In this document: piece by piece, positions 28,158 through 40,652 of the stretch | Layout of the letters: each line of letters opens with the position of its first letter | How positions within the stretch are numbered: position 1 is the first letter of the stretch | Source: a virus | DNA: 64,000 bases | Virus record (IMG/VR): IMGVR_UViG_3300030103_005357 | Span: 41,624 to 105,623 of that record | Reading direction: 5' to 3' (one strand) | Translations under genes and position numbers: made by a program | Notes under the pieces: model-generated | The model's database searches: none | What the model was told of the DNA's origin: nothing | The model's input: only the letters and a program-made list of their open reading frames with translations

Positions 28158-28682
28158 TAGTCGGGGCTGTGATATATAATATTGTTCATTTGTAATTACA
28201 AAATTCTTTTGTTTGTTACATATTGTAGTGTCGGACACTAAAACCACAACATATAGTATAGTTTTAGGTCCATATACCTACTGCACCAATCCCCTCCCAT
28301 CGTCGCCTATCCCCCATACCTACAACATAAACTACACAACATACTAAGTAAAGATATAAGGGAGAATAATAGAGGAAAGACTGGAGGAATGGGTGTTCAA
28401 ATACTGGATGTGGATTACCCTTTTTAATTAAATAAAAATAATATAAATTCCACACACAATAGTTTTCCTTGATTCTAAAGGATTTGCGGCCCTTTTGTTT
28501 GACGTAGCTGCCGCAGTGAGGTTGGTCTTTTTACTTCGCTTCAGTAAACCCAAACAAAAAAAATTATAAAAAAAGTCAATTTCTGCACGGGGGTAAATAC
28601 AAAAAGTTTTTAAAAGTTTTACCTCACTGCACCAGCCACGTTAAAAAACAATAAAAAAAGTGCAGGTCGGGTGACATTTCGC

Positions 28683-28845
28683 AAATAATAGGTAGGCCCA
28701 GATCGAAAGAGAGCGCCCAAATAATGCAGCGCCCCGAATAAACAAAATCAAAATCAAATAATGCCCAGATCTAATCAAACGGCGTAAATAATGTGATTGC
28801 CCAGATCGAACAAAACAAACTAAATAAACCCAGATCAAATAAAAC
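28683..28845. repeat. Iteron-like short direct repeats in non-coding DNA
   Basis: (G)CCCAGATC at 28696, 28763, 28799, 28829, interleaved with AAATAA. Confidence 0.75.
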
Positions 28846-28915
28846 ACCCCAAATAAGTGTGTGGTTAGCGGGGGCGACCACGTTCGACGATATCCGATTG
28901 TATCCGATTATCTCT

Positions 28916-28992
28916 GTAAGTCATTGAGTAGTAGGGAGTTACGGCGATCCGCGCCAGCGTCCTCCGTAACTCGCTGACAACCAACGAGTTAC
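28916..28992. repeat. Paired-palindrome element R1 (27+23+27 bp)
   Basis: GTAAGTCATTGA-GTA-GTAGGGAGTTAC / GC spacer / GTAACTCGCTGA-CAA-CCAACGAGTTAC. Confidence 0.9.
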
Positions 28993-29006
28993 GAGGATTT
29001 TATTTT

Positions 29007-29192
29007 TTAATTAAAAGATTCTAGAGCTTCTATAGCATCTTGGAATGTGATGTAAGTATTGTTTTCTATATTGTGTTGATTCACCCCTTCAGACCATTCG
29101 GCATATTCTGGCGTTACTTCCGTATAGGGTAGCCCTTCGAAAAAATCGTCGAATTTTTTCCACCCCATCATTCTGTGTTCTTTACCACTCAA
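29007..29192 (-). CDS. Hypothetical protein
   Basis: Last ORF of cassette before R1. Confidence 0.45.
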   Translation of the reverse strand: MSGKEHRMMGWKKFDDFFEGLPYTEVTPEYAEWSEGVNQHNIENNTYITFQDAIEALESFN

Positions 29193-29317
29193 CTGAGTAG
29201 CTGCCTTTGCTGCTAGTCAATTGATGCCACAATCAAGGTCTAGTTTTGCGTCTGGGTTTTGAGTTTTTGCGAACTCCAACAGTTGTTTGTTTGTTATTGT
29301 CATTTGCTTGTATTTTT

Positions 29318-29587
29318 TTAATCGATTAAGAATGTACCACCTCCAAACATCCCCTCTTGAGATTTAGCCTCTGCCTTCAAGATCATTACAGCCCTCAAGT
29401 CGCGACCATCTTTTGTTGCAGGGCGAAAATCCAAAATCTTTTCTATTTGTTCCAGCTTCTGCCTGTCTCCAGTGATCGACAATCCATCAATCGTCTTGAA
29501 GATTCCCGCAGCTTTTAGAAACAGTGGGATTTCGTCTGGAGCTTCTTTTTTTAGTTTTTTAATTCGTTCGTGCATCATGGTATCCAT
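29318..29587 (-). CDS. Hypothetical protein
   Basis: 89-aa ORF. Confidence 0.55.
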   Translation of the reverse strand: MDTMMHERIKKLKKEAPDEIPLFLKAAGIFKTIDGLSITGDRQKLEQIEKILDFRPATKDGRDLRAVMILKAEAKSQEGMFGGGTFLID

Positions 29588-29813
29588 TTAGTGAGTTTTG
29601 TATGTAGTCTCTAATCTCGATGAACCACTCATCAGATAAATCCATTTGATCACAAAGGTCTTCTGGTATTGAGGCGCAAGCTATTTTAGCCATCTCTAAG
29701 ATGGTGACATCATATAACCAGCTTCGTCTGATTTTGGAAAGCTCGGGACCAGAGGGTCTGATCGGAAACGCCTCTGAGACGGTTTGGTACTGCTTTGGTT
29801 CTTCTTTTTTCAT
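29559..29813 (-). CDS. Hypothetical protein
   Basis: 84-aa ORF. Confidence 0.55.
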   Translation of the reverse strand: MKKEEPKQYQTVSEAFPIRPSGPELSKIRRSWLYDVTILEMAKIACASIPEDLCDQMDLSDEWFIEIRDYIQNSLNGYHDARTN

Positions 29814-29817
29814 AGTA

Positions 29818-30165
29818 TTATAGATTGCTGTATTTTTCCATCAACTCAACTTGAACGTGCTTGTTCCAGATGCTGTGCATAAGGTCGAACCAACCACCTC
29901 CACGTTCAGCTTCACCTACGGAAGAAGGGAAGACCGTTCTAAACTCCTCCATCATGGTATCTAGTTGAGATTCAAATTGAACCTGCTCAGGGCTAGCCTC
30001 CTCTTTCAACCCATCAACTAACTTTACAGCTTCATCAACCGTTATTAGCTCGCTCCCGTCGCCATTGTAAATGTTCTTCAGATCATTGGTCTCCATGTAG
30101 GATCGGAGTAGAGCATCTAGGAGTCTCTTTGTGCTTACTTGTTTTTTACTTACGTGTTTTTTCAT
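29818..30165 (-). CDS. Hypothetical protein
   Basis: Start moved to ATG 30165 downstream of TTGACG-17-TATGTT. Confidence 0.6.
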   Translation of the reverse strand: MKKHVSKKQVSTKRLLDALLRSYMETNDLKNIYNGDGSELITVDEAVKLVDGLKEEASPEQVQFESQLDTMMEEFRTVFPSSVGEAERGGGWFDLMHSIWNKHVQVELMEKYSNL

Positions 30166-30229
30166 GTCTGAGGGAAACATACCATGAAGCGGAAGGGCCG
30201 TCAAATTTAAATTAATTAAAAATTCAGAC

Positions 30230-30306
30230 GTAAGCCACTGATTAGCAAGGAGTTACGGCGAACGCCCCCGCCGCCGCCCGTAACCCGTTGATAGTCAACG
30301 AGTTAC
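30230..30306. repeat. Paired-palindrome element R2
   Basis: 27-bp palindromes at 30230 and 30280, spacer GGCGAACGCCCCCGCCGCCGCCC. Confidence 0.95.
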
Positions 30307-30315
30307 GAGGGTTTT

Positions 30316-30498
30316 TTATTTGGCAGATTTCATTTCTTCTTTTCGCTTTTTCCTATCGCCAAACCAACCAACATCTGGCGCTTGCATATTTCTGCGTCGC
30401 CAAAAATCGTGATAGGCTTTATTGAATTCTTCTCTAAAACCCCTTTTTAAAGTGGCGTATCTGTTTGCTTCTGAGAAGTCTGGTTTTATTGGTTCCAT
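30316..30498 (-). CDS. Hypothetical protein
   Basis: 60-aa ORF ending just before R2. Confidence 0.5.
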   Translation of the reverse strand: MEPIKPDFSEANRYATLKRGFREEFNKAYHDFWRRRNMQAPDVGWFGDRKKRKEEMKSAK

Positions 30499-30502
30499 GT
30501 TT

Positions 30503-30613
30503 TTATCTTTCTGTTCTGTCTATTCTTTCTCTTCTTACTAAAAGTATCAATCCGATAATGATCGTTGCCCAAAACCAAAATCCCAACCTTGCTAGTAATT
30601 TTATCAAATTCAT
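30503..30613 (-). CDS. Small single-TM peptide (36 aa)
   Basis: MNLIKLLARLGFWFWATIIIGLILLVRRERIDRTER; ATGA overlap with upstream gene. Confidence 0.5.
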   Translation of the reverse strand: MNLIKLLARLGFWFWATIIIGLILLVRRERIDRTER

Positions 30614-31314
30614 GCTGGCTCCACTACAAAACCCGTTTCATCTTTTTTTGCAAGACCTTTCTCAACTAATCCAACGATCACGCCCTTTTTATCTTTAAAG
30701 CGGAGGTCATTCTCATCACCATCGACGACGGGAAAACCAAGATAAGTTTTAGGAAGTGAACCACGGAAAACAACCGCGACATTCCCGCCTAGCGAAAGAA
30801 TCTTTTTTATTCTGTCATCGCTAGTCTCTTCACTGCGGGAAAAGGTCAGGTGGTAGTTTTTAGGCATCTTGCCATCAAGCCATTTTCTCATTCTATAAAA
30901 TCCCTTGGTGTAATCATAAAAATTTACCTCTGGAAACTCTTCGATCACACTTGTCTTGCTCCCCTTCTTCATATTCTCCCAAGGAATATCACTTGTCAGA
31001 TTGAGACGGAAACAAGGAGTGAGATTTTTTCTCGCGGCACTTTTGATAGCCTTTCCTATTTCAATTCTAAGATCCGACATGAAACCGAAGTTATCTTTAA
31101 AGAACCTCCGCGTTTTAGCGATTCTAGAATTTTGCACGTTGGACATACAACCGCGCCCCGCTGTATCTAAACAAGCTGCACGACATCCTGCGCTTGCCCA
31201 TTGGCAAACGTTAAATCCTGATTTAGTAGCAGGGGAAAGATGGAGACCGAACGTGCGGAATCCAACCTTTTCACCCTTAAGGGTTTTGGCGTTGCCTGAG
31301 TTAAGTAGTTTCAT
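30610..31314 (-). CDS. GP88-like phage protein (Cys-rich, radical-SAM-like)
   Basis: NVCQWASAGCRAACL..AGRG, FRLNLTSDI.WE, FYDYTK, YHLTFS, VDGDENDLRF. Confidence 0.75.
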   Translation of the reverse strand: MKLLNSGNAKTLKGEKVGFRTFGLHLSPATKSGFNVCQWASAGCRAACLDTAGRGCMSNVQNSRIAKTRRFFKDNFGFMSDLRIEIGKAIKSAARKNLTPCFRLNLTSDIPWENMKKGSKTSVIEEFPEVNFYDYTKGFYRMRKWLDGKMPKNYHLTFSRSEETSDDRIKKILSLGGNVAVVFRGSLPKTYLGFPVVDGDENDLRFKDKKGVIVGLVEKGLAKKDETGFVVEPA

Positions 31315-31316
31315 AA

Positions 31317-31667
31317 TTACCACCAGCAAGAATAAAAAACTTTGTCCCCCTCATCGATAGCCTTTAGACCGTCCTTGATAAAGTCGAGATCCTTCTCTTT
31401 TCTCCACTCGTCTTGACTGCTGTCAGCACCATAAAAGAAACCCATAGTTACTGGTAGTTTTCCAGCCTCAACCACTGCCCACAGACTTTCTAAATCCTCG
31501 GCAGTCAATTGCATGACTTCACAATTCAAATCGTTGGCTGGCTTTCCCGTTTTGAGAGTCCAGAGTTTTTCCATCCAGCCTTGCAAGGCGTTGTGCTTTC
31601 TCCAAGAGGCGAGTTCTACATCCTCTCCGTTGGAGTCCTGTCTATGTGCATATTGGTCTAATCCCAT
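31317..31667 (-). CDS. Conserved-looking phage hypothetical protein
   Basis: MGLDQY, WRKHNALQGWM, GFFYG, FYSCWW; promoter TTGTCT-17-CAAAAT-9-ATG. Confidence 0.7.
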   Translation of the reverse strand: MGLDQYAHRQDSNGEDVELASWRKHNALQGWMEKLWTLKTGKPANDLNCEVMQLTAEDLESLWAVVEAGKLPVTMGFFYGADSSQDEWRKEKDLDFIKDGLKAIDEGDKVFYSCWW

Positions 31668-31778
31668 AACGAAAGTATTTTGACAGGATGTTTCCTGAGA
31701 GACAAGAGTTTTTTTGATTTTTTATTATTTTAATTTGCGCTTGCACTCTTAGTTTTTTGTGATATGGAAACAATCCTT

Positions 31779-31855
31779 GTAACTCACTGATTGATAAGGA
31801 GTTACGGGGCGCGGCGGGGCGGTTCGCCGTAACTCGCTGGTAGTCAACGAGTTAC
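31779..31855. repeat. Paired-palindrome element R3 (spacer inverted)
   Basis: Palindromes at 31779 and 31829, spacer GGGGCGCGGCGGGGCGGTTCGCC. Confidence 0.95.
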
Positions 31856-31862
31856 GGAGTTT

Positions 31863-32072
31863 TTACTTAATGATTTTTTTACGATAGTTCTCTTCTATGC
31901 ATTCCGATGTGAAAGAATCGAGCCATCCGTTTGCCGTGTCTATGTCGCGATTAAGAGCGTAAACAGGAGTCCCATCCTCATGGCTGATGTGAATTTCCAA
32001 ATGCCCATCGCAATCACCTGCGACGGTGTGGCGTTGACCATTTAAGTGTACGGTCCATTTTTTAATCTTCAT
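31863..32072 (-). CDS. Hypothetical protein
   Basis: Start adjusted to MKIKKW. Confidence 0.5.
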   Translation of the reverse strand: MKIKKWTVHLNGQRHTVAGDCDGHLEIHISHEDGTPVYALNRDIDTANGWLDSFTSECIEENYRKKIIK

Positions 32073-32370
32073 CTGGCAATGGCTCAAAGGGAGCAAATGG
32101 TTCTTTCCCATATTCAAGGAAGTGCATATGCTGCTTTGCATATTGATAGACCTTGTTCATGGCTTCCTTCACTTCTTCTCTTTCTTGATAAGCTTTATCC
32201 CAAGCCTCATCGCCTAGAGGGTAGTAATCTCTCTGATGGAAGGTTGTATCAAAAAGCAATTTAATTTGCGCCTCGCTTACTGCTTCAAACAATTCATTGT
32301 ATTGTTTGCGTAGGCTGTCTTCTCCCGATCCATTCATATGGATGCAGGGCATTGTGTGTTCTTTAATCAT
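32062..32370 (-). CDS. Hypothetical protein
   Basis: P.IHMNGS...FHQRDYYP. Confidence 0.6.
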   Translation of the reverse strand: MIKEHTMPCIHMNGSGEDSLRKQYNELFEAVSEAQIKLLFDTTFHQRDYYPLGDEAWDKAYQEREEVKEAMNKVYQYAKQHMHFLEYGKEPFAPFEPLPDED

Positions 32371-32567
32371 GATTTTAATTCTTTTTTTCTTTCGTATTCA
32401 ACCATCTCCTCATCGATTCTAAAAGAGTCACCGATATAACTGCTTTCATCTGGCAATGGCAAGCTGCCATTTTCTGCGATGTTAACTGCTTCATCCCAAG
32501 ATTCTGCTTCTACCATCATTGTTCCGTAAACCTCCCATGAGCATGGGACTCCATATGTTTTTTTCAT
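32367..32567 (-). CDS. Hypothetical protein
   Basis: VEAESWDEA motif; ORF in tightly packed operon. Confidence 0.6.
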   Translation of the reverse strand: MKKTYGVPCSWEVYGTMMVEAESWDEAVNIAENGSLPLPDESSYIGDSFRIDEEMVEYERKKELKS

Positions 32568-32746
32568 AATCTTTCTGAATCATACCGTCGGATCAAAACA
32601 AAACCCAACTCTTTAAGTGCTTCTATGTCGCTAATTGTTAAAGTTTTTCTTCCTGTTAGTTTCCTTATAGAGTTCCTAACAGATTCTTCTTTTACATAAG
32701 TAAGTTCATTACCCCAAACTTCTTTTCTTATTACTTCTATTGTCAT
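32564..32746 (-). CDS. Hypothetical protein
   Basis: VWGNELTY..LTGRKTLT..DIEALKELG. Confidence 0.6.
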   Translation of the reverse strand: MTIEVIRKEVWGNELTYVKEESVRNSIRKLTGRKTLTISDIEALKELGFVLIRRYDSERL

Positions 32747-32750
32747 GGTT

Positions 32751-32966
32751 TTAGCTTTCGCGGTGAATTTGTGTAAAGCCTAGCTTATCAAACACTTCTG
32801 ATAGTTCAATCGCACCGTGTGTAGAGATAGGGATGCGAGTTTTCTTCTTATCAAAATCCCATTCAATGGAATATTCTAAGCCTTTATAGCCATCCTCTTC
32901 CCTTCGGACGCTAAAGGTCTTGTTGAAGTGTCCTGTCAATTTAATGGTTGGTGTTTCGTTGTTCAT
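32751..32966 (-). CDS. Hypothetical protein
   Basis: 71-aa ORF in operon. Confidence 0.55.
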   Translation of the reverse strand: MNNETPTIKLTGHFNKTFSVRREEDGYKGLEYSIEWDFDKKKTRIPISTHGAIELSEVFDKLGFTQIHRES

Positions 32967-32970
32967 AGTT

Positions 32971-33327
32971 TTATTCTGCGAAAATTACATAACCGTGCTT
33001 GTTGCCGCGAATCACAACAATTTCAGCTTCATGGATAGGATTGTTGCGCTCATCAATAAAGGTCTTAGCCTTATAAGGGTTGTAGGTTACAGAAGCATTA
33101 GGAACTTTCGAGTAAGTGATTTGATTAAGCTCCTCGCCTACAATTACAGCATGGACATTTTTTCTTTGTTCTTTTAAAACCCGCTGACGACCAGCTTCGG
33201 AGACTTTGAACTTGGCATTTTTAACAATGCACTGCTCTGCATGGCGAACTACTCTCCACGCACCATCAACTTTTTCTTGAATGCTTAGGCATCGCTTGTG
33301 GCGGTTGTAGTAAACTTTGATTTCCAT
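32971..33327 (-). CDS. Conserved-looking phage hypothetical protein
   Basis: VYYNRHK, FKVSEAGRQRVL..RKNVHA, TYNPYK; promoter TTGTCT-16-CAAAAT-9-ATG. Confidence 0.7.
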   Translation of the reverse strand: MEIKVYYNRHKRCLSIQEKVDGAWRVVRHAEQCIVKNAKFKVSEAGRQRVLKEQRKNVHAVIVGEELNQITYSKVPNASVTYNPYKAKTFIDERNNPIHEAEIVVIRGNKHGYVIFAE

Positions 33328-33400
33328 AACGAGGGTATTTTGACAGAATTTGATTTTAAGACAAGCCTTTTTTAATGTTTTTAATTAAAAAAAAATCTTC

Positions 33401-33477
33401 ATAAGTCACTGAACGATAGTGAGTTACGGCGAACGGACCCGCCGCCGCCCGTAACTCCTTGATACTCAATGACTTAC
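33401..33477. repeat. Paired-palindrome element R4
   Basis: Palindromes at 33401 and 33451, spacer GGCGAACGGACCCGCCGCCGCCC. Confidence 0.95.
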
Positions 33478-33555
33478 AGCGTTTTTTATTTCTGCAAGAG
33501 AAAACCCCGCCCCCCATGCAGAGGGGACGGGGTTAGCTATCGACCACGATGAAAA

Positions 33556-33669
33556 TTAAAAGGCCATCTTAAGAAGATGCACAACGCCGATAAAGGAGAT
33601 TAGCCCTGACAAAAGCAGAATGCAAGTAAAAACTACATTCTCGAAAAAAGTTCTATCCTGTTCTTTCAT
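33556..33669 (-). CDS. Small single-TM peptide (37 aa)
   Basis: MKEQDRTFFENVVFTCILLLSGLISFIGVVHLLKMAF. Confidence 0.4.
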   Translation of the reverse strand: MKEQDRTFFENVVFTCILLLSGLISFIGVVHLLKMAF

Positions 33670-33703
33670 GATAAGAAGCCCCCCTCGCGGGGGGCGTTAT
33701 AGG

Positions 33704-34459
33704 TTAGGCAGACAAAACAACTGCGGAAGCGCGATCCTCTTCAGTGATAACTGGGTTTGCCACCCTATCAAAGATTGATTGCATACGCATGGTGCGGTCA
33801 GACAACTTGGAAAGGTCGCTACCCTTGAGATTCTCGGTGACAGAATTGTAGAGAGTCCAGAGAGAGCCGCCCTTGAATTCTTCATGGCGAGGGTTGCGGA
33901 ACTCCTCAACTGCTTTGTAGATATCACGGGCGGGAAACGCTTTGGAATCGACAAGCTCGACAATCAAGTCAGAGGCAGACTCGACTTCAGTTTGCTGGTA
34001 AGACTCAATGCGCTTCGCCATGTCAGACCAATGATCTTTGACCTTGGCAACGGCAGAAGAAAGCACACGGGGAAGATCTGACAGAATGTTAGTGGTATGA
34101 CGGCGAGCCAGCTTCACATCAGAAGAGAAGCAAAGATTTTCACAAACCATCATTTGATTGCCAGCAGCAATAGAAGCAGCAAAAGATTTGTCGTGAGCAT
34201 TGCGAAGGCCCAAGACGATCTTGCGATCCTCTCCAGAAATGTCCTTACCCTTGAGGGCAAAGCCTCCGAAGTAACGAAGGCCACCACGGGCAAGAGCATG
34301 CTCTTCCTCGGAGACTTCAAACCCAGCGCGACCAATGGCATCGCGGGTCATATCCACCAACTTGCGGTGAGGGATTGGGGTATGGGTTGCGGTTGCTTCT
34401 GGGGTTTGGACTCCAGAAAGGGCTTCGGCATCAATTTTGTTTTTAGCGTAGATAAGCAT
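33704..34459 (-). CDS. DUF932 family protein
   Basis: THTPIPH, LGLRNAHDKS, VCENLCF, RRHT, SLWTLYNSVTE; start moved to ATG after TTGTGC-17-CATACT. Confidence 0.8.
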   Translation of the reverse strand: MLIYAKNKIDAEALSGVQTPEATATHTPIPHRKLVDMTRDAIGRAGFEVSEEEHALARGGLRYFGGFALKGKDISGEDRKIVLGLRNAHDKSFAASIAAGNQMMVCENLCFSSDVKLARRHTTNILSDLPRVLSSAVAKVKDHWSDMAKRIESYQQTEVESASDLIVELVDSKAFPARDIYKAVEEFRNPRHEEFKGGSLWTLYNSVTENLKGSDLSKLSDRTMRMQSIFDRVANPVITEEDRASAVVLSA

Positions 34460-34597
34460 AACGGCAGGAGTATGACCTAAAAAAACACTTTGCACAACAA
34501 CTAATTGAACAAAAATGAAAATAATTTGTAGGTCAGAATATTTTGCGGAAATAAATATTGACATACCCCCCAGCCTTATGATAGAGAGAAAACCTCC

Positions 34598-34674
34598 GTA
34601 ACTCACTACTACTCAACGAGTTACGGGCCACCGAGGGGCGCTTCGCCGTAACTTACTGATTGTCAATGAGTTAC
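34598..34674. repeat. Paired-palindrome element R5 (spacer inverted)
   Basis: Palindromes at 34598 and 34648, spacer GGGCCACCGAGGGGCGCTTCGCC. Confidence 0.95.
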
Positions 34675-34763
34675 GATGGTTTTACAGTAACTCCTAAAAA
34701 AACAAAAAAAACCCCTCCCACTGTCTAGAAAAGCGGGAGAGGTTTGGATAGTCAACCTTTCGA

Positions 34764-34970
34764 TTAACTAAGAGCAAACTTTTCGTTTAATGCGGAAACG
34801 TGCTTGCGTGTCCACTTCACATTATCCACGAAGTTTTCAAACTTATCATCTTGGACATCACCCATTCTTTCGGCTAGGTGTTGATGAACGAGACGCAAAG
34901 CATATTCAAGCATGATAGCCTGATCTTGGTTTCTCACTTCGATACGGACGGATTCAGTTGATTTAGGCAT
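34764..34970 (-). CDS. Hypothetical protein
   Basis: 68-aa ORF. Confidence 0.55.
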   Translation of the reverse strand: MPKSTESVRIEVRNQDQAIMLEYALRLVHQHLAERMGDVQDDKFENFVDNVKWTRKHVSALNEKFALS

Positions 34971-35014
34971 AATTTGACTTTAGTTTATAGTTTCTTATCT
35001 GTCAAGTAAAAAGA

Positions 35015-36028
35015 TTACTTGTTGTGCAGCTTGTTGTGCAGCTTGTGCATATCGAAGAAGAGTCTCTGCCAGCAGTTAGCTTTCCTGCCCGATACCGCTT
35101 TGATACCTTTTGACTCATATTTCAAAACCGCAAAGTGAAACTGAGTAAAAGTTTTTAGTTTGTCTTTTCTCGGATGATTGCCCCCAATGCTCCAAACACC
35201 ATTCTTGATGATTTTTTTGATGAGATCGATATCATACAGCCCTCCCAATCCTCTATCCTTGATAGAGTCTAGTAGAAACTGTGGCAATCCAGACCACATT
35301 TGCATTCCAAATTTCTTTTGGTCTGCTATCTCCTTACTGAATACGTGATCAATGATGACAACTGTGTCATTCATTACTTTCTTGATGATAGCAGCCCTTT
35401 CTTTTGGGACTAGCAATCTATTTTTTAACACTCCATTGATGGCAGCTAGGATCTGCCCATGAAAAGACGCAACATTAGCACCAAGATCAAGAGCTTTCTC
35501 TTTGGTCGGATTCAACGGATTGTAACCAAGTTTTTTGAAAAGTTTGATTATACCATGAATGTTATCAGGATCACTTTCTTTGAGTCTAGTGATTGCCTTA
35601 GCCTTAGCCCAAAAGCGAGCATTCACTTCCCATTGGCTTTTTGTTCTTGGGTCGTTAGCTCGCAAGCATCTTGTGATTGATGCTAGCGTATTGACGACCC
35701 TGCAATCAATAACATCATAAGGGGAAGCGCAAATTCTATGCTGACCATCAGTAATCTGAGGATAGTATTTGCCTTTATGTTTGTGCAGATAGATGTTGGG
35801 CAAATCGCAATCGTCATCATCCCAATTGTTTTTGATGTTCTCAATCTGACTCTTGTTCAATGCTCTTTGGAAGCTCTCATCGATTCCAATATTTTCTTTT
35901 TTGATTTGCGCTATCTTATAGATCCCCACCTTTTTAATCTGTGGAGCCTTAGATAGAGGCTTTGCGTTTAGACCGTAGTCTGTTACTGCTTTATGCGTGT
36001 TCTGATAGAACTTAGTTTTATTACTCAT
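35015..36028 (-). CDS. ParB/Srx-fold DGQHR-motif protein
   Basis: IDESFQR, ITDGQHR, N in RAND; basic C-terminal region. Confidence 0.7.
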   Translation of the reverse strand: MSNKTKFYQNTHKAVTDYGLNAKPLSKAPQIKKVGIYKIAQIKKENIGIDESFQRALNKSQIENIKNNWDDDDCDLPNIYLHKHKGKYYPQITDGQHRICASPYDVIDCRVVNTLASITRCLRANDPRTKSQWEVNARFWAKAKAITRLKESDPDNIHGIIKLFKKLGYNPLNPTKEKALDLGANVASFHGQILAAINGVLKNRLLVPKERAAIIKKVMNDTVVIIDHVFSKEIADQKKFGMQMWSGLPQFLLDSIKDRGLGGLYDIDLIKKIIKNGVWSIGGNHPRKDKLKTFTQFHFAVLKYESKGIKAVSGRKANCWQRLFFDMHKLHNKLHNK

Positions 36029-36218
36029 AACGTTTTTAGTTTCTTGTTCTTTGGTTGATGCCCCCGAATCAGTAGTTCATCAGCGACAGAGAGAGTCTAA
36101 CTGGATTTAGTTTATATGCAAGATTTTTTATTAATTTAAAATGCAGCTCAGAGTATTTCGCGCCAAATATCTCTTGAGACAATCCACCACCCCAAAAACA
36201 TAGTTACAAAAAAACCCC

Positions 36219-36295
36219 GTAAGTCACTGATAATCAACGACTTACGGGCGGCGGCGGGGCGCTTCCCCGTAACTCGCTGATTACCAACAAGTTAC
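36219..36295. repeat. Paired-palindrome element R6 (spacer inverted)
   Basis: Palindromes at 36219 and 36269, spacer GGGCGGCGGCGGGGCGCTTCCCC. Confidence 0.95.
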
Positions 36296-36305
36296 GAGGC
36301 TTTTC

Positions 36306-36560
36306 CTACTTAGTAGGATCGTCGCAAGCAGGGCCGACATCCCCATCGCGCCCCTCAGAGTGAAAAAAGTCTCCGTCACACTCGCACAACCACCAGCGCG
36401 AGCGCCTGACCTTCCCCCGCTTACCAGCCCAGTCGGGGCCACAAGCATCCTCCCAAGCTTCCTCGGGGGAGGTTCCGAAACCTTGATTCAACAGCTGAAG
36501 CCCAAAAGGGCAGGACTGCTTTTTAGAACGGACAACATAGTGTTTAGTAGTGCTGGACAT
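36306..36560 (-). CDS. Hypothetical protein
   Basis: Own promoter TTGCTA-17-TATTCT-6-ATG. Confidence 0.6.
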   Translation of the reverse strand: MSSTTKHYVVRSKKQSCPFGLQLLNQGFGTSPEEAWEDACGPDWAGKRGKVRRSRWWLCECDGDFFHSEGRDGDVGPACDDPTK

Positions 36561-36614
36561 GGGAGTAGAATAAACAGAAAATGCGATACTAGCAAGACAT
36601 TTTAAAATCTTTTT

Positions 36615-36854
36615 TTATTCTGCGTCGAGGTGATTTTGAAGAGCTTGCGCGTCTGCGGGTGACAGGCCATCCTCATCAGAAGACCATTCGGGATTGCGGT
36701 CGCCCATGTCGTTGTGGATCTGCGCGAGCAAATCTTGCATTACTTCGTCCGTGGGGTTGAAGTTGCCAGCGCGAGGTCCATCGTCAAGCATATCGCGCAA
36801 GTCAGTTTCATTCATAGGAGGGAGGGTATCAACAATAGGATTTTGAACTGTCAT
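36615..36854 (-). CDS. Very acidic small protein (possible DNA mimic)
   Basis: Asp-rich 79 aa; own promoter TTGACC-17-CATACT-6-ATG. Confidence 0.6.
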   Translation of the reverse strand: MTVQNPIVDTLPPMNETDLRDMLDDGPRAGNFNPTDEVMQDLLAQIHNDMGDRNPEWSSDEDGLSPADAQALQNHLDAE

Positions 36855-36991
36855 GGCGGGAGTATGGTTCAGAATTTATGATGGGTCAACCTATAAAAAC
36901 ATTTTTTTTGATTTTAATGTAGCTCAGGATATTTTTCGCCAAATATCTTATGGGGCAATCCACCCCAGAAACGCAGTCAGAAGAGAGCTTC

Positions 36992-37068
36992 GTAACTCAC
37001 TGATACTCAACGAGTTACGGCGAACCGCCCCGCCCCCGCCCGTAACTCCTTGACGCTCAACGAGTTAC
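36992..37068. repeat. Paired-palindrome element R7
   Basis: Palindromes at 36992 and 37042, spacer GGCGAACCGCCCCGCCCCCGCCC; supplies lysozyme stop codon. Confidence 0.95.
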
Positions 37069-37655
37069 AGCGTTTTATCTAACCACAAAGAAACTTCCCA
37101 TTTTCTCCGACGCTCCAAACCTTTTCGGATTTTTCCCGCTGCCATTCTATATTGAGGCATAACCACCTCAACGCTTTTATAGTTTCCATTATTGAGTCTA
37201 TTCTTTTTTTCGCAGACGAGTTTGCGAAGTGAACCTTGACCACAGTTGAAAGTAAAACTTGTGAGTGATGCCAATTGGTTTTCAGTCAATGGAACTTTTA
37301 CAATTCTCAACACATGATTTTTTGCGACAAGTAATTCTTCTTCTAACAGTTTTAATGCTTCGGCTTCTGTGATGGTGTCTCCCCACTTAACATTTTTGGT
37401 ATGCCCATAGCCGATAGTCATGACTCCACCACTGCAACGATATGCCTCAGACTTAAAACTCTCATATTGTTTTACCCTATCAAACATTTTATCCCAAGGG
37501 GAAACCTCTTTTTTATAAACTCGATTCGGCTTAACAAGCAAAGGGACATTCTCTTGCTTTTCGGCGATCATCGGGAGGATCTCTATTGGCTCCTCAGTAT
37601 TTAAGAGGAGATAAACTGATGTGGCTAGTAGTGTGATCATAAAAAGTTTTTTCAT
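37065..37655 (-). CDS. GH24 phage lysozyme with N-terminal signal/anchor
   Basis: YES...AYRCSGGVMTIGYGHT, LTENQ.ASL.SFTFNCG, GLERRRKWE. Confidence 0.88.
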   Translation of the reverse strand: MKKLFMITLLATSVYLLLNTEEPIEILPMIAEKQENVPLLVKPNRVYKKEVSPWDKMFDRVKQYESFKSEAYRCSGGVMTIGYGHTKNVKWGDTITEAEALKLLEEELLVAKNHVLRIVKVPLTENQLASLTSFTFNCGQGSLRKLVCEKKNRLNNGNYKSVEVVMPQYRMAAGKIRKGLERRRKWEVSLWLDKTL

Positions 37656-37656
37656 T

Positions 37657-37821
37657 TTATTTATTATCAAAGTGATTTCTCAACCATCCTTCGACGGCTT
37701 CCTTACCAAACCGATTATGTAAACGGCGCAGAGTAAAGTGGCTTCTACTTATTACACCATCAACCTCAAGCTCCGCGATGTATTCTTGCATGGCTTTTTC
37801 GAATTTTTCTTTTTCTGTCAT
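37657..37821 (-). CDS. Small hypothetical protein (54 aa)
   Basis: MTEKEKFEKAMQEYIAELEVDG...; fills gap in operon. Confidence 0.5.
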   Translation of the reverse strand: MTEKEKFEKAMQEYIAELEVDGVISRSHFTLRRLHNRFGKEAVEGWLRNHFDNK

Positions 37822-37823
37822 GA

Positions 37824-37967
37824 TTATTTTAATTCCTCCAATTCAACTTTTAACTCTTGGCACTCTTTCTGGAATTGACCTGAGACTTCGACGACCCTAT
37901 CGACCATCTTGTCCCAATTTTCTTCTGCTTTTGCCATCGCTGCCAATGCTTCTTCTGTCGCTGTCAT
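37824..37967 (-). CDS. Small helical protein, paralogue A (47 aa)
   Basis: MTATEEALAAMAKAEENWDKMVDRVVEV...; promoter TTGACC-16-TATACT-6-ATG; paralogue at 40485..40652. Confidence 0.75.
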   Translation of the reverse strand: MTATEEALAAMAKAEENWDKMVDRVVEVSGQFQKECQELKVELEELK

Positions 37968-38039
37968 GTGGGAAGTATATCAGAAAATGTGATGAGGTCA
38001 ACCCCTAAACGCACTTTTTTAATTTATTTTTAGGGAAAT

Positions 38040-38178
38040 TGGTCGCTCTAAAAGGACTTGCACCTTTATCTTTCTCGCCCGAACCATTGGGGTTGCGGTG
38101 ACTTTCTCGCCGAGATTATCATCGAGCGTGTTATTGAAGAGGTCGTGGAGATTGTCTTGCTTGTTAGACTATAGAGCT
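38040..38178 (-). ncRNA. tRNA-shaped RNA with 71-nt insert replacing the anticodon loop
   Basis: Acceptor (A)GCTCTA/TAGAGC(G)-A-CCA, D-stem GTCT/AGAC, T-arm AAAGG-TGCAAGT-CCTTT; own promoter TTGTCC-17-TATAAT. Confidence 0.7.
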
Positions 38179-38234
38179 TTCTTACGGGGGAGATTATAAG
38201 TGATTTGGGGGATGGGGACAAGCCCTTTTTTAAT

Positions 38235-38447
38235 TTATTTTTCTATGCGTGAGAAGTAGAGAGTTCTGAAAACTTCCTTGTTACCGCTCTCGCTGTCGTG
38301 GCTTTTGTCAACTACCTTGCAAACTGCGAACTCCTTAGTTGAACGCTCAACCCCGCGAAGTTGATACATGCGGAGATTTCCATTGTTGGAGGTGGTATAA
38401 ACAAACTGCTTATTGATCAGGCGGGTGATGTTGTCTTGGTTGGTCAT
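38235..38447 (-). CDS. Hypothetical protein
   Basis: TAAAAT-6-ATG; C-terminal FRTLY resembles FRTLH in 39079..39432. Confidence 0.6.
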   Translation of the reverse strand: MTNQDNITRLINKQFVYTTSNNGNLRMYQLRGVERSTKEFAVCKVVDKSHDSESGNKEVFRTLYFSRIEK

Positions 38448-38564
38448 GTGGATATTTTACTCTAAAAACGCAGAGATTAAAAGCTTTTTCTGCATCTTTT
38501 TTTATTTATTTTTTTAAGTAAAAGGCTTGACACTATTCTTCTTTACTATAAAGAAACATCCTTC

Positions 38565-38641
38565 GTAAGTCCTTGATACTCAACGAGTTACGGGCCAGCG
38601 ACCCGCCGCGCCCCGTAACTCCTTGATACTCAGTGAGTTAC
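38565..38641. repeat. Paired-palindrome element R8
   Basis: Palindromes at 38565 and 38615, spacer GGGCCAGCGACCCGCCGCGCCCC. Confidence 0.95.
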
Positions 38642-38738
38642 GACGGTTTTCTTATTAGCTGTTTTCTCGCGGCTGTCAACACAAAAGATTAATTTAATTC
38701 AAAAAAAAGCTCCCTTTCGGGAGCCTTGCACGGGGTGG

Positions 38739-38972
38739 TTAGTCTTGCCAGTCTCGCGCTCGATCCTCCGCGCCTTGCGCCATGTATGTCCGAGCGTCCT
38801 CCAATCCGTCCTTGTAGGCGAACGCCCATATCTCATATGATTCCTCTCCATTCGGAAACTCATCGGGTATGATATAGCCAAGGTAGGAGGTGGGGCAGAT
38901 GTTACTCTCCTGATTGTTGAGTGCTGCCTTGTATGCGAATTCTGCGAGCTGGTCTTGTGTTACTGTTGCCAT
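38739..38972 (-). CDS. Hypothetical protein
   Basis: Start moved to ATG after TTGTGT-17-TATAAT-6; hairpin and A-run terminator at about 38701-38724. Confidence 0.6.
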   Translation of the reverse strand: MATVTQDQLAEFAYKAALNNQESNICPTSYLGYIIPDEFPNGEESYEIWAFAYKDGLEDARTYMAQGAEDRARDWQD

Positions 38973-39078
38973 GCCGAGATTATACTCTCGAAAAGAATTA
39001 AACACAAGATCTTTTTGCATAAAAACACAAAAAAACCCGCCAGCCTCCGAAGAGACTGACGGGCGACACACAACACCA

Positions 39079-39432
39079 TTAGAAAACTGATTTGGCTAGC
39101 TGGTAAGCGGTCGCCACGCGACCCTTCACCTTGGTAATTCCCGAAACATGCAGAGTGCGGAACTTAGTCTTGCCTCCATCGTCGAGGTCTTGCACCTCTC
39201 CTTGGATGTAACGGCGACCCGAACCTTTGGCGTGATCGGTGTGATCAACTGACTTGATAACGAAACTACGAACGCCGTCATTTTTGACAGAGGATTCGTC
39301 GTGGTTGTAGTAAGTCACCACGCGATTGGTGAGCTTTTTCTTAAGGTCTTCGTCGCTGAGTCCATACAGGGCGTGGTCGAACTTGTAGTTGATGCCGACA
39401 TTGGTGGTGGTAGTGGTAGTGGTGTTTTTCAT
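39079..39432 (-). CDS. Hypothetical protein
   Basis: Start moved to ATG after TTGCGC-17-TATAAT-9; terminator at about 39030-39063. Confidence 0.65.
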   Translation of the reverse strand: MKNTTTTTTTNVGINYKFDHALYGLSDEDLKKKLTNRVVTYYNHDESSVKNDGVRSFVIKSVDHTDHAKGSGRRYIQGEVQDLDDGGKTKFRTLHVSGITKVKGRVATAYQLAKSVF

Positions 39433-39499
39433 AACGAGGTAATTATACTCTAGATTTTGGTTGGGCGCAAGAACTATTTTGCTATTAAAGTGATTTTTT

Positions 39500-39745
39500 T
39501 TAGAGGTAGGAGGCGACAGAAACAAGGGCTTCGACCTCTGCTCTTTTGGCTGCGCGTTTAGCTGCGCGGATATCGAGGAGAGCTTTCGCTGCTTGCTCGC
39601 GGGTGATAGCTTGGAACTTGTAGCGACTCCAGTTCTGATTTTTAACGGAGACATGCAAGTAGGTCATGCCAGTACGGTAGACTGAGAGAATGAGATGCTT
39701 GGTCTTATAGGTGCGGAACTTTGGTGATGTAGTGGTGTCGGACAT
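39500..39745 (-). CDS. Hypothetical protein
   Basis: Start moved to ATG after TATAAT-6. Confidence 0.6.
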   Translation of the reverse strand: MSDTTTSPKFRTYKTKHLILSVYRTGMTYLHVSVKNQNWSRYKFQAITREQAAKALLDIRAAKRAAKRAEVEALVSVASYL

Positions 39746-39862
39746 GGGGATATTATAAACGGAAATCTCACAAAAGAAAAGCTTTTTCTGCATAAAAAAG
39801 AAACTTTTTTTTCGATTAAAAGTGTTGACACGATGGCTTGTTTTGGTATGGGAAAAACCTTC

Positions 39863-39939
39863 GTAAGTCGTTGATACTCAGTGAGTTACGGGCGGCGGCG
39901 GGGCGCTTCGCCGTAACTCGTTGATACTCAGTGAGTTAC
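39863..39939. repeat. Paired-palindrome element R9 (spacer inverted)
   Basis: GTAAGTCGTTGA-TAC-TCAGTGAGTTAC / GGGCGGCGGCGGGGCGCTTCGCC / GTAACTCGTTGA-TAC-TCAGTGAGTTAC. Confidence 0.95.
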
Positions 39940-39987
39940 AGCGATTCTTTTCATAACATAAAAACTCAACGTGTCAAGTATTTTTTT

Positions 39988-40053
39988 TGGTGGATGGCGG
40001 GGGGATCGAACCCCCATCCGAGACTCGCATCCCGTCGAAACCATTGGCCACCC
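39988..40053 (-). ncRNA. Mini-tmRNA: tRNA-like domain only, no mRNA-like domain
   Basis: GGGTGGC-CAATGGTTTCGAC-GGGAT-GCGA-GTCTC-GGAT-GGGGG-TTCGATC-CCCCC-GCCATCC-A-CCA; G3:U70, A73. Confidence 0.8.
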
Positions 40054-40060
40054 AAACTTT

Positions 40061-40285
40061 TTACTTGCCGTAAATCGAGCGGAGTTCCCAACTCGCTTCG
40101 TTCACTATTTCCGCAGTCACGCTTTGCGGATTCTTGCACGCTTCGGGAAGACCTTTGCGAATGATTCGCTTCAACTTACGCGCACGCATCCACTCCCCAA
40201 TGTGATGAGGGAAGAGAATGGGGTAGGTAAGAATCAAGATAGCTTTCCCCATTGGGGATTGATATTTAAAATTGTGGAGGTTCAT
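40061..40285 (-). CDS. Hypothetical protein
   Basis: Start adjusted to MNLHNFKY; immediately upstream of mini-tmRNA. Confidence 0.5.
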   Translation of the reverse strand: MNLHNFKYQSPMGKAILILTYPILFPHHIGEWMRARKLKRIIRKGLPEACKNPQSVTAEIVNEASWELRSIYGK

Positions 40286-40292
40286 AATGTTT

Positions 40293-40475
40293 TTATTGAA
40301 TGAGATCGAGAGACTCAAGAGAAACTTCTTTCGCGTGTCCGTCATTGAATGAGATCCAAGCGCTGTTGTCTTGTTGGAATGTCTCATGAACCAAGACGGT
40401 TTGGCCTTGGTAATTAGCGAAGAACTCTTCGCAAGAAACCTCGGCTAATTGACTGATTGTGTTTTGGTCTGTCAT
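40293..40475 (-). CDS. Hypothetical protein
   Basis: Promoter TTGACC-17-TAGAAT-6-ATG. Confidence 0.6.
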   Translation of the reverse strand: MTDQNTISQLAEVSCEEFFANYQGQTVLVHETFQQDNSAWISFNDGHAKEVSLESLDLIQ

Positions 40476-40484
40476 GTGTGTATT

Positions 40485-40652
40485 CTACTTGTTTTCTTTT
40501 TTAAGGTCAAGGAACCATTCCTCTTGTTCTTTCTGGAACTCTTGGCATTCCCTGATGAACTGCTCTCCGACTTCGACGGTTCTGTCCACCATCTTGTTCC
40601 AATTTTCTTCGGCTTTGGCCATTGCTGCTAGTGCTTCTTCGGTTGCTGTCAT
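40485..40652 (-). CDS. Small helical protein, paralogue B (55 aa)
   Basis: MTATEEALAAMAKAEENWNKMVDRTVEV...; promoter TTGTAT-17-TAGAAT-6-ATG. Confidence 0.75.
   Translation of the reverse strand: MTATEEALAAMAKAEENWNKMVDRTVEVGEQFIRECQEFQKEQEEWFLDLKKENK

Follow-up and report, generated by a model that had tools for sequence, protein, structure and literature searches.

What are the nine repeats that punctuate the accessory genes of this marine phage, and what might they do for the genes they separate? In the window, by which we mean the whole 64,000-nucleotide (64 kb) stretch analysed here, nine 77-bp double palindromes mark the borders of small gene cassettes. The first-pass annotation had tentatively read them as protein-binding or recombination sites that may bound a shuffleable cassette array; the present analysis confirms the elements as described and in part supports this interpretation.

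Anatomy and distribution of the elements

Each element consists of a 27-bp palindrome, a 23-bp spacer and a second 27-bp palindrome (27-23-27 bp), and pattern matching places them, without strand assignment, at 28916..28992 (element 1), 30230..30306 (element 2), 31779..31855 (element 3), 33401..33477 (element 4), 34598..34674 (element 5), 36219..36295 (element 6), 36992..37068 (element 7), 38565..38641 (element 8) and 39863..39939 (element 9). All nine starts are exactly those first annotated. The palindrome pattern, allowing up to three mismatches, returned 18 matches that form the nine pairs (0.02 expected from shuffles) and no match outside the nine elements in the 64 kb window, as had been claimed. 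The geometry was likewise as described, with a 23-bp spacer in 9/9 window elements and adjacent palindromes exactly 50 bp apart, centre to centre, in 162 of about 170 pairs across the family. An element reads, in order, as an A-run, a short closing-stem arm, the first palindrome, the spacer, the second palindrome, a closing-stem arm and a T-run. Both palindromes have the same polarity, and base conservation is mirror-symmetric around the element centre. The spacer is pure G/C, is made up of a G- or C-rich 12-mer and a small hairpin, and is found in both orientations among elements. The flanks (A-run/C..C and G..G/T-run), earlier said to extend the symmetry of most elements, accompany some 65-70% of family copies, and the A/T flanks are missing from elements of GC-richer relatives. 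Predicted free energies of the nine elements range from -32 to -54 kcal/mol, with one long hairpin in 7/9, the most stable being that of element 6 (-53.7 kcal/mol).

The elements split a minus-strand array of accessory genes (28264..41007) that includes GP88, DUF932, L5 gp82-like and lysozyme genes and many ORFans; the earlier label "early region" is not established for this block. Nor does the order first described, in which an element follows the 3' end of one gene group and precedes the promoter of the next, apply at every site, because elements 8 and 9 also have a promoter upstream in the gene direction. Canonical terminators that are separate from the elements adjoin elements 4, 5 and 8, so that the element is not needed as sole terminator; two of these (33695-33678 and 33534-33503, minus strand) lie directly upstream of element 4 in the gene direction.

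The family comprises 155 distinct 77-mers in about 80 related uncultured marine siphovirus contigs, and a core pattern search returned 67 viral loci. In three near-complete relatives of 91-104 kb, the elements occur only within one accessory-gene array of 5-8 kb, and a control pattern gave no match in these three genomes. Relative to a conserved 349-aa gene, the elements are always upstream, at 3.8-9 kb, and never downstream; they are conserved between phages with protein identities of only 40-60%. In 185,579 bacterial and archaeal genomes there were only two matches, both on phage-like contigs, and the element was not found in bacterial chromosomes.

Sequence conservation and fused promoters

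Judged by their pattern of substitution, the palindromes are conserved as sequence, not structure. TAA/TTA, T10 and A18 are invariant, whereas neither candidate fold shows covariation (paired positions 81.7% vs 82.2% in shuffles, and 75.9% vs 75.8%), and no compensatory change occurs in the 24 or 35 stem pairs over 139 copies. Outer position 5 is C or G only, never A/T, and its change is uncompensated; such a C/G swap is present in about 40% of outer arms, where it breaks the pair in either fold but keeps G:C in duplex DNA. Pairing at positions 8/20 and 9/19 does not exceed chance. Of 139 copies, 42 have the same central triplet in both palindromes, read in direct orientation, where 12.4 would be expected, and only 3 have mirror-image triplets, against an expectation of 12.2. 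The earlier suggestion that the element is more than a plain terminator is borne out by these invariant bases without compensatory change and by the separate canonical terminators beside several elements. In contrast to the palindromes, the flanking closing stem and the small polar spacer hairpin look structural. Closing-stem pairing reaches 58.4% against 52.5 ± 1.1 in shuffles (0/500 as high), and the small hairpin sits anchored to one spacer end in 59 of 125 cases (22.6 ± 4.2 in shuffles). L183-type variants retain an inner stem by compensatory changes and have a hairpin with a UUCG loop as its cap. A run of at least four T is missing from about half of the arms.

Missed by the first-pass annotation, and new here, are predicted promoters that fire into the elements. 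A sigma70-like promoter stands at a fixed distance (-35 at -38) beside 43% of elements and 57% have no adjacent inward promoter, while in 13% two such promoters face each other across the element. In the fused layout an A/T-rich stretch precedes TTGACA at -38, which a 16-bp spacer separates from a -10 box of the form TAnnnn, lacking the usual T at its sixth position; the hexamers are conserved and the intervening 16 bp variable. Of 294 unique arms, 70 have a TTGAC that begins between -40 and -36, and in 49 of these it begins exactly at -38. Transcription is predicted to start 3-7 nt ahead of the hairpin, and the fixed distance means that P1, the first palindrome, spans roughly +5 to +31. The promoter side predicts spacer polarity 38:8, the predicted RNA from the fused promoter carrying the G-rich spacer in the 38. 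In the window, a plus-strand promoter at 34558..34587 (TTGACA, 18 bp, TAGAGA) points into element 5, antisense to the minus-strand genes. Element 8 is faced by promoters at 38527..38554 (plus; TTGACA, 16 bp, TAAAGA), firing rightwards and antisense, and 38652..38679 (minus; TTGACA, 16 bp, TAATAA), firing leftwards and sense; the latter is preceded by a canonical terminator (38727-38706). The pair at element 9 lies at 39825..39852 (plus; TTGACA, 16 bp, TATGGG), rightwards, and 39950..39977 (minus; TTGACA, 16 bp, TATGAA), leftwards into the element and on to the minus-strand gene 39500-39793. An orthologue of element 9 with promoters on both arms also exists in a divergent relative, L110.

Cassette exchange among relatives

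The idea of shuffleable cassettes gains support from relatives, in which elements bound the cassettes that are gained, lost or replaced. The element is kept one-to-one in 444 orthologous pairs, and in 16 pairs (at least four events) one phage has a single element where the other has element-cassette-element. Two of the single elements are chimeras whose crossovers lie within the element at different internal positions, in or beside the spacer (n=2 only), and population contigs show cassette-sized skips. Element 7 and its orthologue in L006 carry the spacer in opposite orientations. Some breakpoints fall at or inside elements, as the first-pass annotation had suggested checking; since elements border directly on gene ends, chance alone would place part of the breakpoints at their edges. 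No empty site was seen in about 480 orthologous comparisons, which rules out a MITE. No integrase, resolvase, tyrosine/serine recombinase or Y1 transposase was found in the three relatives (82-94% complete), no RecT in near-complete relatives, and the scanned ORFs of the window also lacked an integrase, a resolvase and a Y1 transposase, the missing integrase having been recorded at first pass; no phage recombinase gene was found. With no recombinase in three relatives, different crossover positions and cassettes that bring their own promoters, the earlier comparison to integron attC or pdif site-specific recombination is not supported. Homologous recombination between repeated elements, as shown for the T4-type PeSLs also named at first pass (PMC2839356), fits better than site-specific recombination.

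A proposed composite boundary element and its alternatives

We propose, with a confidence that is about even, that each 77-bp unit represents one copy of a composite boundary element particular to a lineage of ~90-110 kb marine siphovirus-like phages, a PeSL-like promoter/bidirectional-terminator unit that is probably protein-bound and offers portable homology for cassette shuffling. The elements are most likely two-way transcription stops, often promoter-fused, and crossover points for cassette swapping. Their mode of action, which we infer from sequence, involves predicted termination, promoter activity and short RNAs. Transcription from either side would produce a long hairpin closed by the flanks and then a U-run, so that the element would serve as a two-way terminator or insulator between cassettes, capping RNA ends; the A-rich segment just downstream of the promoter's -10 box may double as the U-run for opposing transcripts. 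The fused promoters would yield mainly short hairpin RNAs of ~95 nt, which in two-thirds of cases would be antisense to the gene next to them. Since the half-sites are held by sequence and not by pairing, a symmetric sequence-specific protein, most likely phage-encoded, probably binds the four half-sites GTAA[C/G]TC..TGA, and could act as operator or roadblock gating the promoters and terminators. The two-dimer protein-binding site envisaged at first pass stays plausible, although no DNA-binding protein emerged: the small ORFs neighbouring the elements have no family matches. The 77-100 bp of shared sequence would provide the portable homology by which general (homologous) recombination, crossing over in elements, could add, delete or replace cassettes with the logic of T4-type PeSLs and no need for a site-specific recombinase.

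It is possible, if rather unlikely, that the element acts purely at the RNA level, as a bidirectional terminator and/or T7 RNase III-type processing site or end-protecting hairpin with no DNA-binding protein, its sequence conserved for recognition of the hairpin by an RNA-binding protein or nuclease of host or phage. As a palindrome gives the same hairpin from either strand, an RNA factor would recognise transcripts of both directions. The stable folds, closing-stem covariation, anchored spacer hairpin, UUCG-capped L183-type variant with its compensated inner stem, U-run flanks and predicted transcription start just before the hairpin are consistent with such a role, as is the gene-sense strand, in which G-U pairs exceed A-C mismatches (56:24) and the spacer tends to be C-rich (31:14). 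Bidirectional intrinsic terminators and T7 early RNase III sites are also intergenic hairpins, with A-run and U-run, that divide a multigene region, and the T7 R sites share a long irregular hairpin with an internal loop. However, ordinary terminator stems drift via compensatory changes, and the elements combine an absence of such drift, uncompensated outer swaps and chance-level pairing at 8/20 and 9/19 with a palindrome present twice in the same polarity, a G/C spacer of constant 23-bp length and fused promoters; moreover, the short hairpins, at 12 bp, fall below the length that RNase III requires, and a 3x3 internal loop is present in every long form. The converse proposal, a pure operator array in which a phage repressor dimer-of-dimers occupies the palindrome pairs to silence or roadblock each cassette, hairpin potential being a by-product of dyad symmetry, is improbable. 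The phi29 p4 sites, the mycobacteriophage stoperators and the conserved inverted repeats of phiC31, an operator array with many intergenic copies of one short site, would be its models. Invariant half-sites without covariation, 50-bp spacing (about five helical turns), the fixed promoter-palindrome distance, mirror-symmetric conservation and phage-lineage specificity argue for it. Stoperators are similarly many copies of one short conserved intergenic site in a single genome, with a transcription-blocking placement possible, but they are asymmetric, orientation-dependent 13-bp sites of temperate phages whose repressor is known (PMC9283540, PMC6550527), whereas the sites here are paired 27-bp palindromes inside a hairpin with U-runs. 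An operator array also leaves unexplained the covarying closing stem, the A/T-run flanks, the polar spacer hairpin and the link between spacer polarity and promoter side; in addition, the majority of elements have no adjacent inward promoter, no repressor-like or helix-turn-helix protein and no integrase was found, and thus there is no sign of a temperate lifestyle.

Three further readings have far less in their favour. That each palindrome is a two-way promoter, recognised by an ECF-like sigma factor that the phage itself encodes, we consider very doubtful. ECF promoters have AAC at -35 and GTT at -10, a layout that GTAAC-N17-GTTAC shares, and 22/22 GTAAC-N17-GTT matches of the window fall in elements. 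The protein at 43248-43925, whose gene is conserved across the family, has a weak Sigma70_r2 match, and its model has Foldseek matches almost only to sigma factors (sigH, SigW, sigE, sigma-28), with probabilities of 0.9-0.99 and E-values of only 0.014-0.2. However, a sigma factor is unlikely to use a -10 motif that exactly reverse-complements its -35 motif, the invariant T10 and A18 would sit in the promoter spacer, the variable outer position would break the putative gene-direction -10 box in 6/9 window copies, and the structural operons lack the motif. Highly improbable, too, is an R-loop or recombination hot spot, where G-rich RNA made by a fused promoter on a C-rich template, with hairpin-forming arms alongside, would form a stable R-loop, and this would prime DNA synthesis or promote exchange where cassettes meet. 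The 38:8 polarity, the crossovers in or next to the spacer and the nearby genes for a RuvB-like ATPase (26887-27789) and an ERCC4 nuclease (44964-45980) would accord with this, but most elements have no promoter, the G-tract is only ~12 nt, and termination requirements could explain spacer polarity equally well. A site-specific or transpositional mobile element, with attC-like or pdif-like sites or MITE or REPIN-type repeats and a dedicated recombinase, is already largely refuted and retains hardly any probability. Imperfect palindromic sites also bound gene cassettes in integron attC and pdif systems, inserted cassettes here have elements at both ends, and spacers are inverted between orthologues. 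The two-palindrome layout recalls REP/BIME (REPIN) and Correia/nemis MITEs, which are ~80-150 bp, place two inverted palindromic repeats around a central motif, lie outside genes and have reported roles as terminators, promoters and RNase III substrates. Those repeats, however, are dispersed in host chromosomes, depend on RAYT or other transposases and show presence/absence polymorphism, whereas the present elements occupy one phage region, are absent from host chromosomes and have neither empty sites nor a Y1 transposase. Neither IntI- nor Xer-type site architecture is evident, the 3-bp odd centre fits neither Xer nor serine-recombinase sites, and the missing recombinases and variable crossovers weigh against this reading as well.

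The proposed composite boundary element thus finds its nearest likeness in the PeSLs of T4-type myoviruses, composites of a sigma70 promoter and stem-loop motifs in hyperplastic regions, with homologous recombination and chimeric elements (PMC2839356, PMC4122927). Shared with these are the repetition of a sigma70-like promoter with an A/T-rich upstream region and a terminator-like stem-loop, the concentration in a hyperplastic region of small ORFans, and homologous recombination between copies that yields indels and chimeric elements with no dedicated recombinase. By contrast, the stem-loop here is a rigid 27-23-27 double palindrome with invariant bases, the promoter keeps a constant distance from the stem-loop and is directed towards it, in most cases against the direction of the genes and in some with a second promoter opposite, and the phage is siphovirus-like, not T4-like.

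Element family and genomic setting

In the best-supported reading of the data, the 77-bp double palindrome (27 bp, a 23-bp spacer and 27 bp) appears to be a lineage-specific composite boundary element that works like the promoter-early stem-loops (PeSLs) of T4-type myoviruses. Such an element would combine a two-way terminator or insulator hairpin, one or more integrated inward promoters, four sequence-specific half-sites that imply a putative symmetric binding factor, and portable homology for the exchange of the cassettes into which the elements divide an array of minus-strand accessory genes. Anatomy, distribution, pattern of conservation, promoter motif with its geometry and recombinant junctions are directly observed; termination, activity of the promoters, the short RNAs and binding by a protein are inferred. 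The nine elements start exactly where the first-pass annotation had placed them (28916, 30230, 31779, 33401, 34598, 36219, 36992, 38565 and 39863), and its statement that the window holds no further copies proved correct, as a scan for the 27-bp palindrome allowing up to three mismatches returned 18 sites in the 64 kb, all belonging to the nine pairs, against 0.02 expected from shuffles. The 23-bp spacer consists almost only of G and C in each pair, within a region of ~40-45% G+C, the left flanks being rich in A and the right flanks in T. All nine elements are harboured by a block of minus-strand genes (~28.3-41.0 kb) containing GP88, DUF932, L5 gp82-like and lysozyme genes and many ORFans, and the majority of the array ORFs have no family match. 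The window also carries a siphovirus-like gene set (tail proteins L and J, the large terminase subunit TerL, PhoH and ThyX), three tRNAs, a Mom-family protein and numerous glycosyl- and sulfotransferases. DNA of this phage is contained in marine metagenomes from at least 12 studies; it has no close cultured relative, its TerL being at most ~30% identical to that of any cultured phage, and a megablast search with the array found nothing similar among cultured phages. A scan of the elements against Rfam returned no family at gathering or E-value thresholds (a match to MIR405, E 0.15, was taken as chance), and a literature search for similar phage repeats yielded CRISPR noise and otherwise nothing relevant.

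Within IMG/VR, a core pattern spanning the spacer matched 67 loci and our own scan found 162 complete elements, giving 155 distinct 77-mers once relatives were added. Eighty relatives were collected via a conserved 349-aa protein that marks the family; elements start 3.8-4.5 kb upstream of its gene in every contig with at least 4 kb of upstream DNA, and never occur downstream of it. Three near-complete genomes (91-104 kb, 82-94% complete) hold every palindrome within one 5-8 kb stretch, while a reversed control pattern has no match in the same three; one of them (G002) packs about nine elements into 4.7 kb, with one small ORF enclosed by each pair. Among prokaryotes, represented by one genome for each of 185,579 species, two true copies were found, both on contigs with genes of this phage family, binned into a Flavobacteriaceae MAG and a Verrucomicrobiales MAG. 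Given this array-only placement in relatives and the restriction to two phage-like contigs among 185,579 genomes, the element is phage-specific and region-specific. Two contigs whose marker gene is 63-71% identical (L193 and L198) have no elements within 5.4 kb upstream, and no substitute repeat is obvious there. Distant relatives (L188, L190 and L191, ~2.5-3.5 kb upstream of the 349-aa gene; L190, L193 and L202) contain single palindromes beside ATGTTCCAC direct repeats, and also CTGTTAG repeat clusters; both repeats are other repeat systems within the same control region.

Palindromes, predicted folds and inward promoter motifs

The geometry of the element is rigid, the distance between palindromes being 50 bp in 162 of ~170 adjacent pairs, with rare variants that have a 49-bp distance, an additional third palindrome or a 31-nt spacer. 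No copy departs from TAA/TTA, T10 or A18 in its palindromes, and variation is free at positions 8, 9, 13-15, 19 and 20. When an alignment of 139 distinct elements was compared with shuffles, no covariation was detected for either a two-hairpin fold (81.7% of cells paired, 82.2% in shuffles) or a single long hairpin (75.9% and 75.8%). Position 5 of the outer half-sites is C or G, never A or T, and the swap is uncompensated, which breaks the RNA pair in either fold and retains a G:C pair in duplex DNA. Moreover, the conservation pattern has its mirror axis at the midpoint of the full element and not at that of each palindrome. Of 139 elements, 42 have the same central triplet, read in direct orientation, in both palindromes (12.4 expected), and only 3 have mirror-image triplets (12.2 expected); the palindromes are therefore units of the same polarity, in which full complementarity of first and second is avoided. 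Together, the invariant bases, the lack of covariation, the uncompensated position 5, the whole-element symmetry and the direct triplets argue that a symmetric factor reads the palindromes as sequence. The earlier suggestion that the element is more than a plain terminator is thus upheld, both by palindromes that do not covary and by the canonical G/C hairpin terminators that already directly adjoin elements 4 (33401-33477), 5 (34598-34674) and 8 (38565-38641).

Other parts of the element look structural. A 9-bp flank helix that would close it pairs in 58.4% of cases against 52.5 +/- 1.1 in shuffles, also above slid controls, and has a covariation score of 0.275 against 0.217, with none of 500 shuffles as high. 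The spacer is polar: of 125 distinct spacers, 59 anchor a 4-6 bp G/C hairpin at one end (22.6 +/- 4.2 in shuffles) and only 5 do so at the opposite end; in variants of the L183 type, the inner arms are altered on both sides with pairing kept, and the spacer forms a 6-bp hairpin with a UUCG cap. Predicted RNA folds of the window elements range from -32 to -54 kcal/mol, seven of the nine forming one long hairpin closed by A/U flanks. The consensus flanks, an A-run and a T-run, would place a U-run after the hairpin on both strands in many copies, not all, and a T-run of at least four within 14 nt is present in 51-70% of arms. Several elements are followed, 25-100 nt further on, by outward promoters of ordinary appearance that would serve the next genes. 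Wobble pairs were not significantly biased with respect to gene strand under crude gene calls (45 vs 33), and a stricter set gave a modest bias that may also be mutational. Contigs from RNA libraries cross elements or end in them; these were not counted as evidence of transcription, because ends in repeats are assembly artefacts, DNA carry-over is possible and many apparent joints between different elements reflect repeat cross-mapping. Upstream of element 4, between two terminators, the minus strand at ~33540-33640 has TTGCAT, 17 bp and TAATCT, followed ~75 nt later by a strong terminator (33534-33503), and may be a small RNA gene.

The first-pass annotation had not seen that predicted promoters are directed into the boundary elements. 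Among 294 distinct arms, 70 have a TTGAC that reads towards the element and starts 40-36 nt before its edge, in 49 cases exactly at -38. The profile comprises an A/T-rich upstream region, gC-TTGACA, a variable 16-bp spacer and a purine-rich -10 box opening with TA (95%), then an A-run and a conserved C at -4 before the element begins. An inward sigma70-like promoter (TTGACA, 16 bp, TAnnnn) at this fixed distance accompanies 90 of 208 elements, and 27 of the 208 have promoters face to face on both sides; in the window, the motif occurs on the left side of element 5 and on both sides of elements 8 and 9 (39863-39939). In 45 cases the fused promoter runs antisense to the first sizeable ORF past the element and in 21 it runs sense, and therefore most fused promoters cannot be those that drive the genes. 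They are predicted to yield a hairpin RNA of ~95 nt whose end lies in the U-run on the far side, and this U-run is present in 70% of the cases; for transcripts in the opposite direction, the promoter's A-run would, on the other strand, supply the U-run after the hairpin. Spacer polarity tracks the promoter side, RNA from the fused promoter being G-rich in 38 cases against 8; read along the gene-sense strand, spacers are C-rich 31 times against 14. Flipping of the spacer is thus real, even between orthologues, but it is not neutral.

Truncated elements in L020, L024, L032, L057 and their relatives consist of the first palindrome, the spacer and GTAAC, followed directly by TGTCAAG and an A-run; on the other strand, a TTGACA box abuts the half-site, so that a promoter-like motif stands in place of the second palindrome. 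Next to element 9, a 66-nt minus-strand segment (39988-40053) matches both ends of the tmRNA model (Rfam RF00023) at 47.6 bits, the gathering score being 47, without an ARAGORN call; it is read as a predicted tRNA-like domain without a tag reading frame, and ~10 nt beyond its 3' end comes the -35 box belonging to the leftward promoter into element 9.

Cassette exchange and comparison with known systems

Gene maps of the relatives are colinear and differ by whole cassettes between elements: in L006, a single unrelated 318-aa gene takes the place of two cassettes of the window, and L054 is without the 35015/34764 cassette. Long nucleotide matches stop at element edges, for example at 34675, one base past element 5, and at 36295, the last base of element 6 (36219-36295). 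When both 200-bp flanks of every element were compared with all other loci, the element was kept one-to-one in 444 high-identity flank pairs, and none of the orthologous pairs presented an empty site. One element replaced an element-cassette-element unit in 16 pairs, representing at least four events, and 32 pairs had a gene-sized indel beside a single element. Two elements are chimeric: that at L014:3703 equals the left element of L150 up to mid-spacer and the right element from there, and in that at L063:6034 the switch comes where the second palindrome begins. Some breakpoints in relatives accordingly fall at or within the elements, as seen in the match ends, the replacement events and the chimeras. 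Site-specific recombination, suggested earlier by analogy with integron attC and pdif, is not supported: no match to Phage_integrase, Resolvase or Y1_Tnp was found in the three relatives 82-94% complete, and no integrase among the window ORFs scanned. The absence of these families from near-complete relatives and the differing crossover points favour homologous exchange over the 77-100 bp that the copies have in common. Near-complete relatives also gave no match to a RecT-type recombinase.

Segments of ~77 bp directly downstream, in gene direction, of elements 6 and 7 (36992-37068), at 36142-36218 and 36915-36991, are similar to each other and to L006, and are read as a duplicated leader or promoter segment that would travel with the element.

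Several known classes of repeat share parts of this anatomy. An integron attC site would be recombined by an IntI-type enzyme, for which the three near-complete relatives and the window ORFs scanned hold no Phage_integrase match, at one fixed core point, whereas of the two crossovers mapped here one falls within the spacer and the other where the second palindrome begins; the attC core, GTTRRRY, also differs from the arm ends, GTTAC-GG. A MITE or Correia-like mobile repeat was rejected, as no orthologous flank pair has an empty site and 444 keep the element one-to-one, and so was a REP, BIME or REPIN repeat, since only two true copies occur among 185,579 genomes, each on a phage-like contig, and Y1_Tnp (RAYT) gave no match. 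The element resembles an operator array of the stoperator or CIR type in its many intergenic copies of sequence-conserved sites without structural covariation, and a bidirectional intrinsic terminator in its hairpin and U-run on both strands in many copies; however, the palindromes show no compensatory change and only the 9-bp closing stem covaries, unlike in such a terminator.

The closest likeness is to the PeSLs, as a functional class and not a homology family. T4-type PeSLs are composite motifs of a sigma70 promoter and a stem-loop in hyperplastic regions, and homologous exchange between their copies has been shown experimentally (PMC2839356, PMC4122927). Likewise, the present motif is repeated with a sigma70-like promoter and A/T-rich upstream region (90 of 208), is confined to one 5-8 kb array per ~100-kb genome beside small ORFans, and recombines between copies to give cassette indels (at least four events) and the two chimeric elements. 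Stable predicted folds, U-runs and a covarying closing stem may form a stem-loop that terminates transcripts. Unlike in typical PeSLs, the promoter points into the stem-loop, and the core is a rigid double palindrome in another phage lineage; this design, far more rigid and sequence-specific than that of PeSLs, implies the putative binding factor. A further-reaching scheme, which we offer tentatively and consider rather unlikely, would make the element an undescribed regulatory cis-site of a lytic phage lineage, whose four half-sites are read by a symmetric protein, as DNA or as the identical hairpins of either strand, gating opposed promoters and bidirectional terminators wherever two cassettes meet, yielding mostly antisense hairpin RNAs of ~95 nt, and doubling as a recombination module that keeps the accessory array fluid. 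If the PeSL-like reading holds, the PeSL principle, by which regulatory boundary motifs serve as portable homology for shuffling orphan genes, would extend beyond T4-like myoviruses to an abundant uncultured marine siphovirus lineage. Joined in a fixed arrangement, promoter, double palindrome and terminator make up a compact part that is open to testing, could be synthesised for reporter assays and could act as bait for a binder, and the element may serve as a marker of accessory-gene arrays in viral metagenomes.

Candidate readers of the half-sites

No DNA- or RNA-binding family was found with Pfam and PHROGs in ~60 ORFs, in a homologue search of 39079-39654 or in two atlas look-ups; the scanned ORFs likewise gave no match to a helix-turn-helix or repressor family, and the small ORFs around the array matched no family. 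The product of 41307-42143 was rejected as a binder since it looks like a tail-tube protein, and an IHF site (TCAA-N4-TTR) was rejected because only ~30% of half-sites fit and these phages encode no HU or IHF protein. The plus-strand gene 43248-43925 encodes a conserved 225-aa protein with a weak Sigma70_r2 match and a Cys-rich insert, and the structures matched by its AlphaFold model (pLDDT 72) are nearly all sigma factors (sigH, SigW, sigE, sigma-28), though at weak E-values; the protein is probably a phage-encoded sigma factor. With low confidence, GTAAC-N17-GTTAC of the palindromes could be an ECF-type promoter read by this sigma-like protein, as it is laid out like an ECF promoter and all 22 such matches in the window fall in elements. 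However, a -10 box exactly complementary to the -35 box is improbable, the invariant palindrome centre is left unexplained, and in most copies of the window the variable outer base would inactivate the promoter that reads in gene direction.

The encoded Mom-family protein (25100-25774, plus strand), DUF1599 'nucleotide modification associated' domain (26133-26474, plus) and ThyX (17179-17796, plus) suggest that the phage DNA is modified. The half-site GA[G/C]TTAC would fit the Mu Mom target S-A-S-N-Y, a motif so degenerate that the fit is a lead only.

Beyond the array, 44964-45980 (plus) encodes a fusion of a C2H2 zinc finger with an ERCC4 nuclease domain and overlaps the start of the large terminase gene, and at the array's other end 26887-27789 encodes a RuvB-like AAA+ protein with a winged helix. 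The 191-aa ORF at 39079-39654 (minus) has homologues of only ~110-117 aa that cover 53-61% of it and is split in two in L006; it may represent two genes or contain an internal start.
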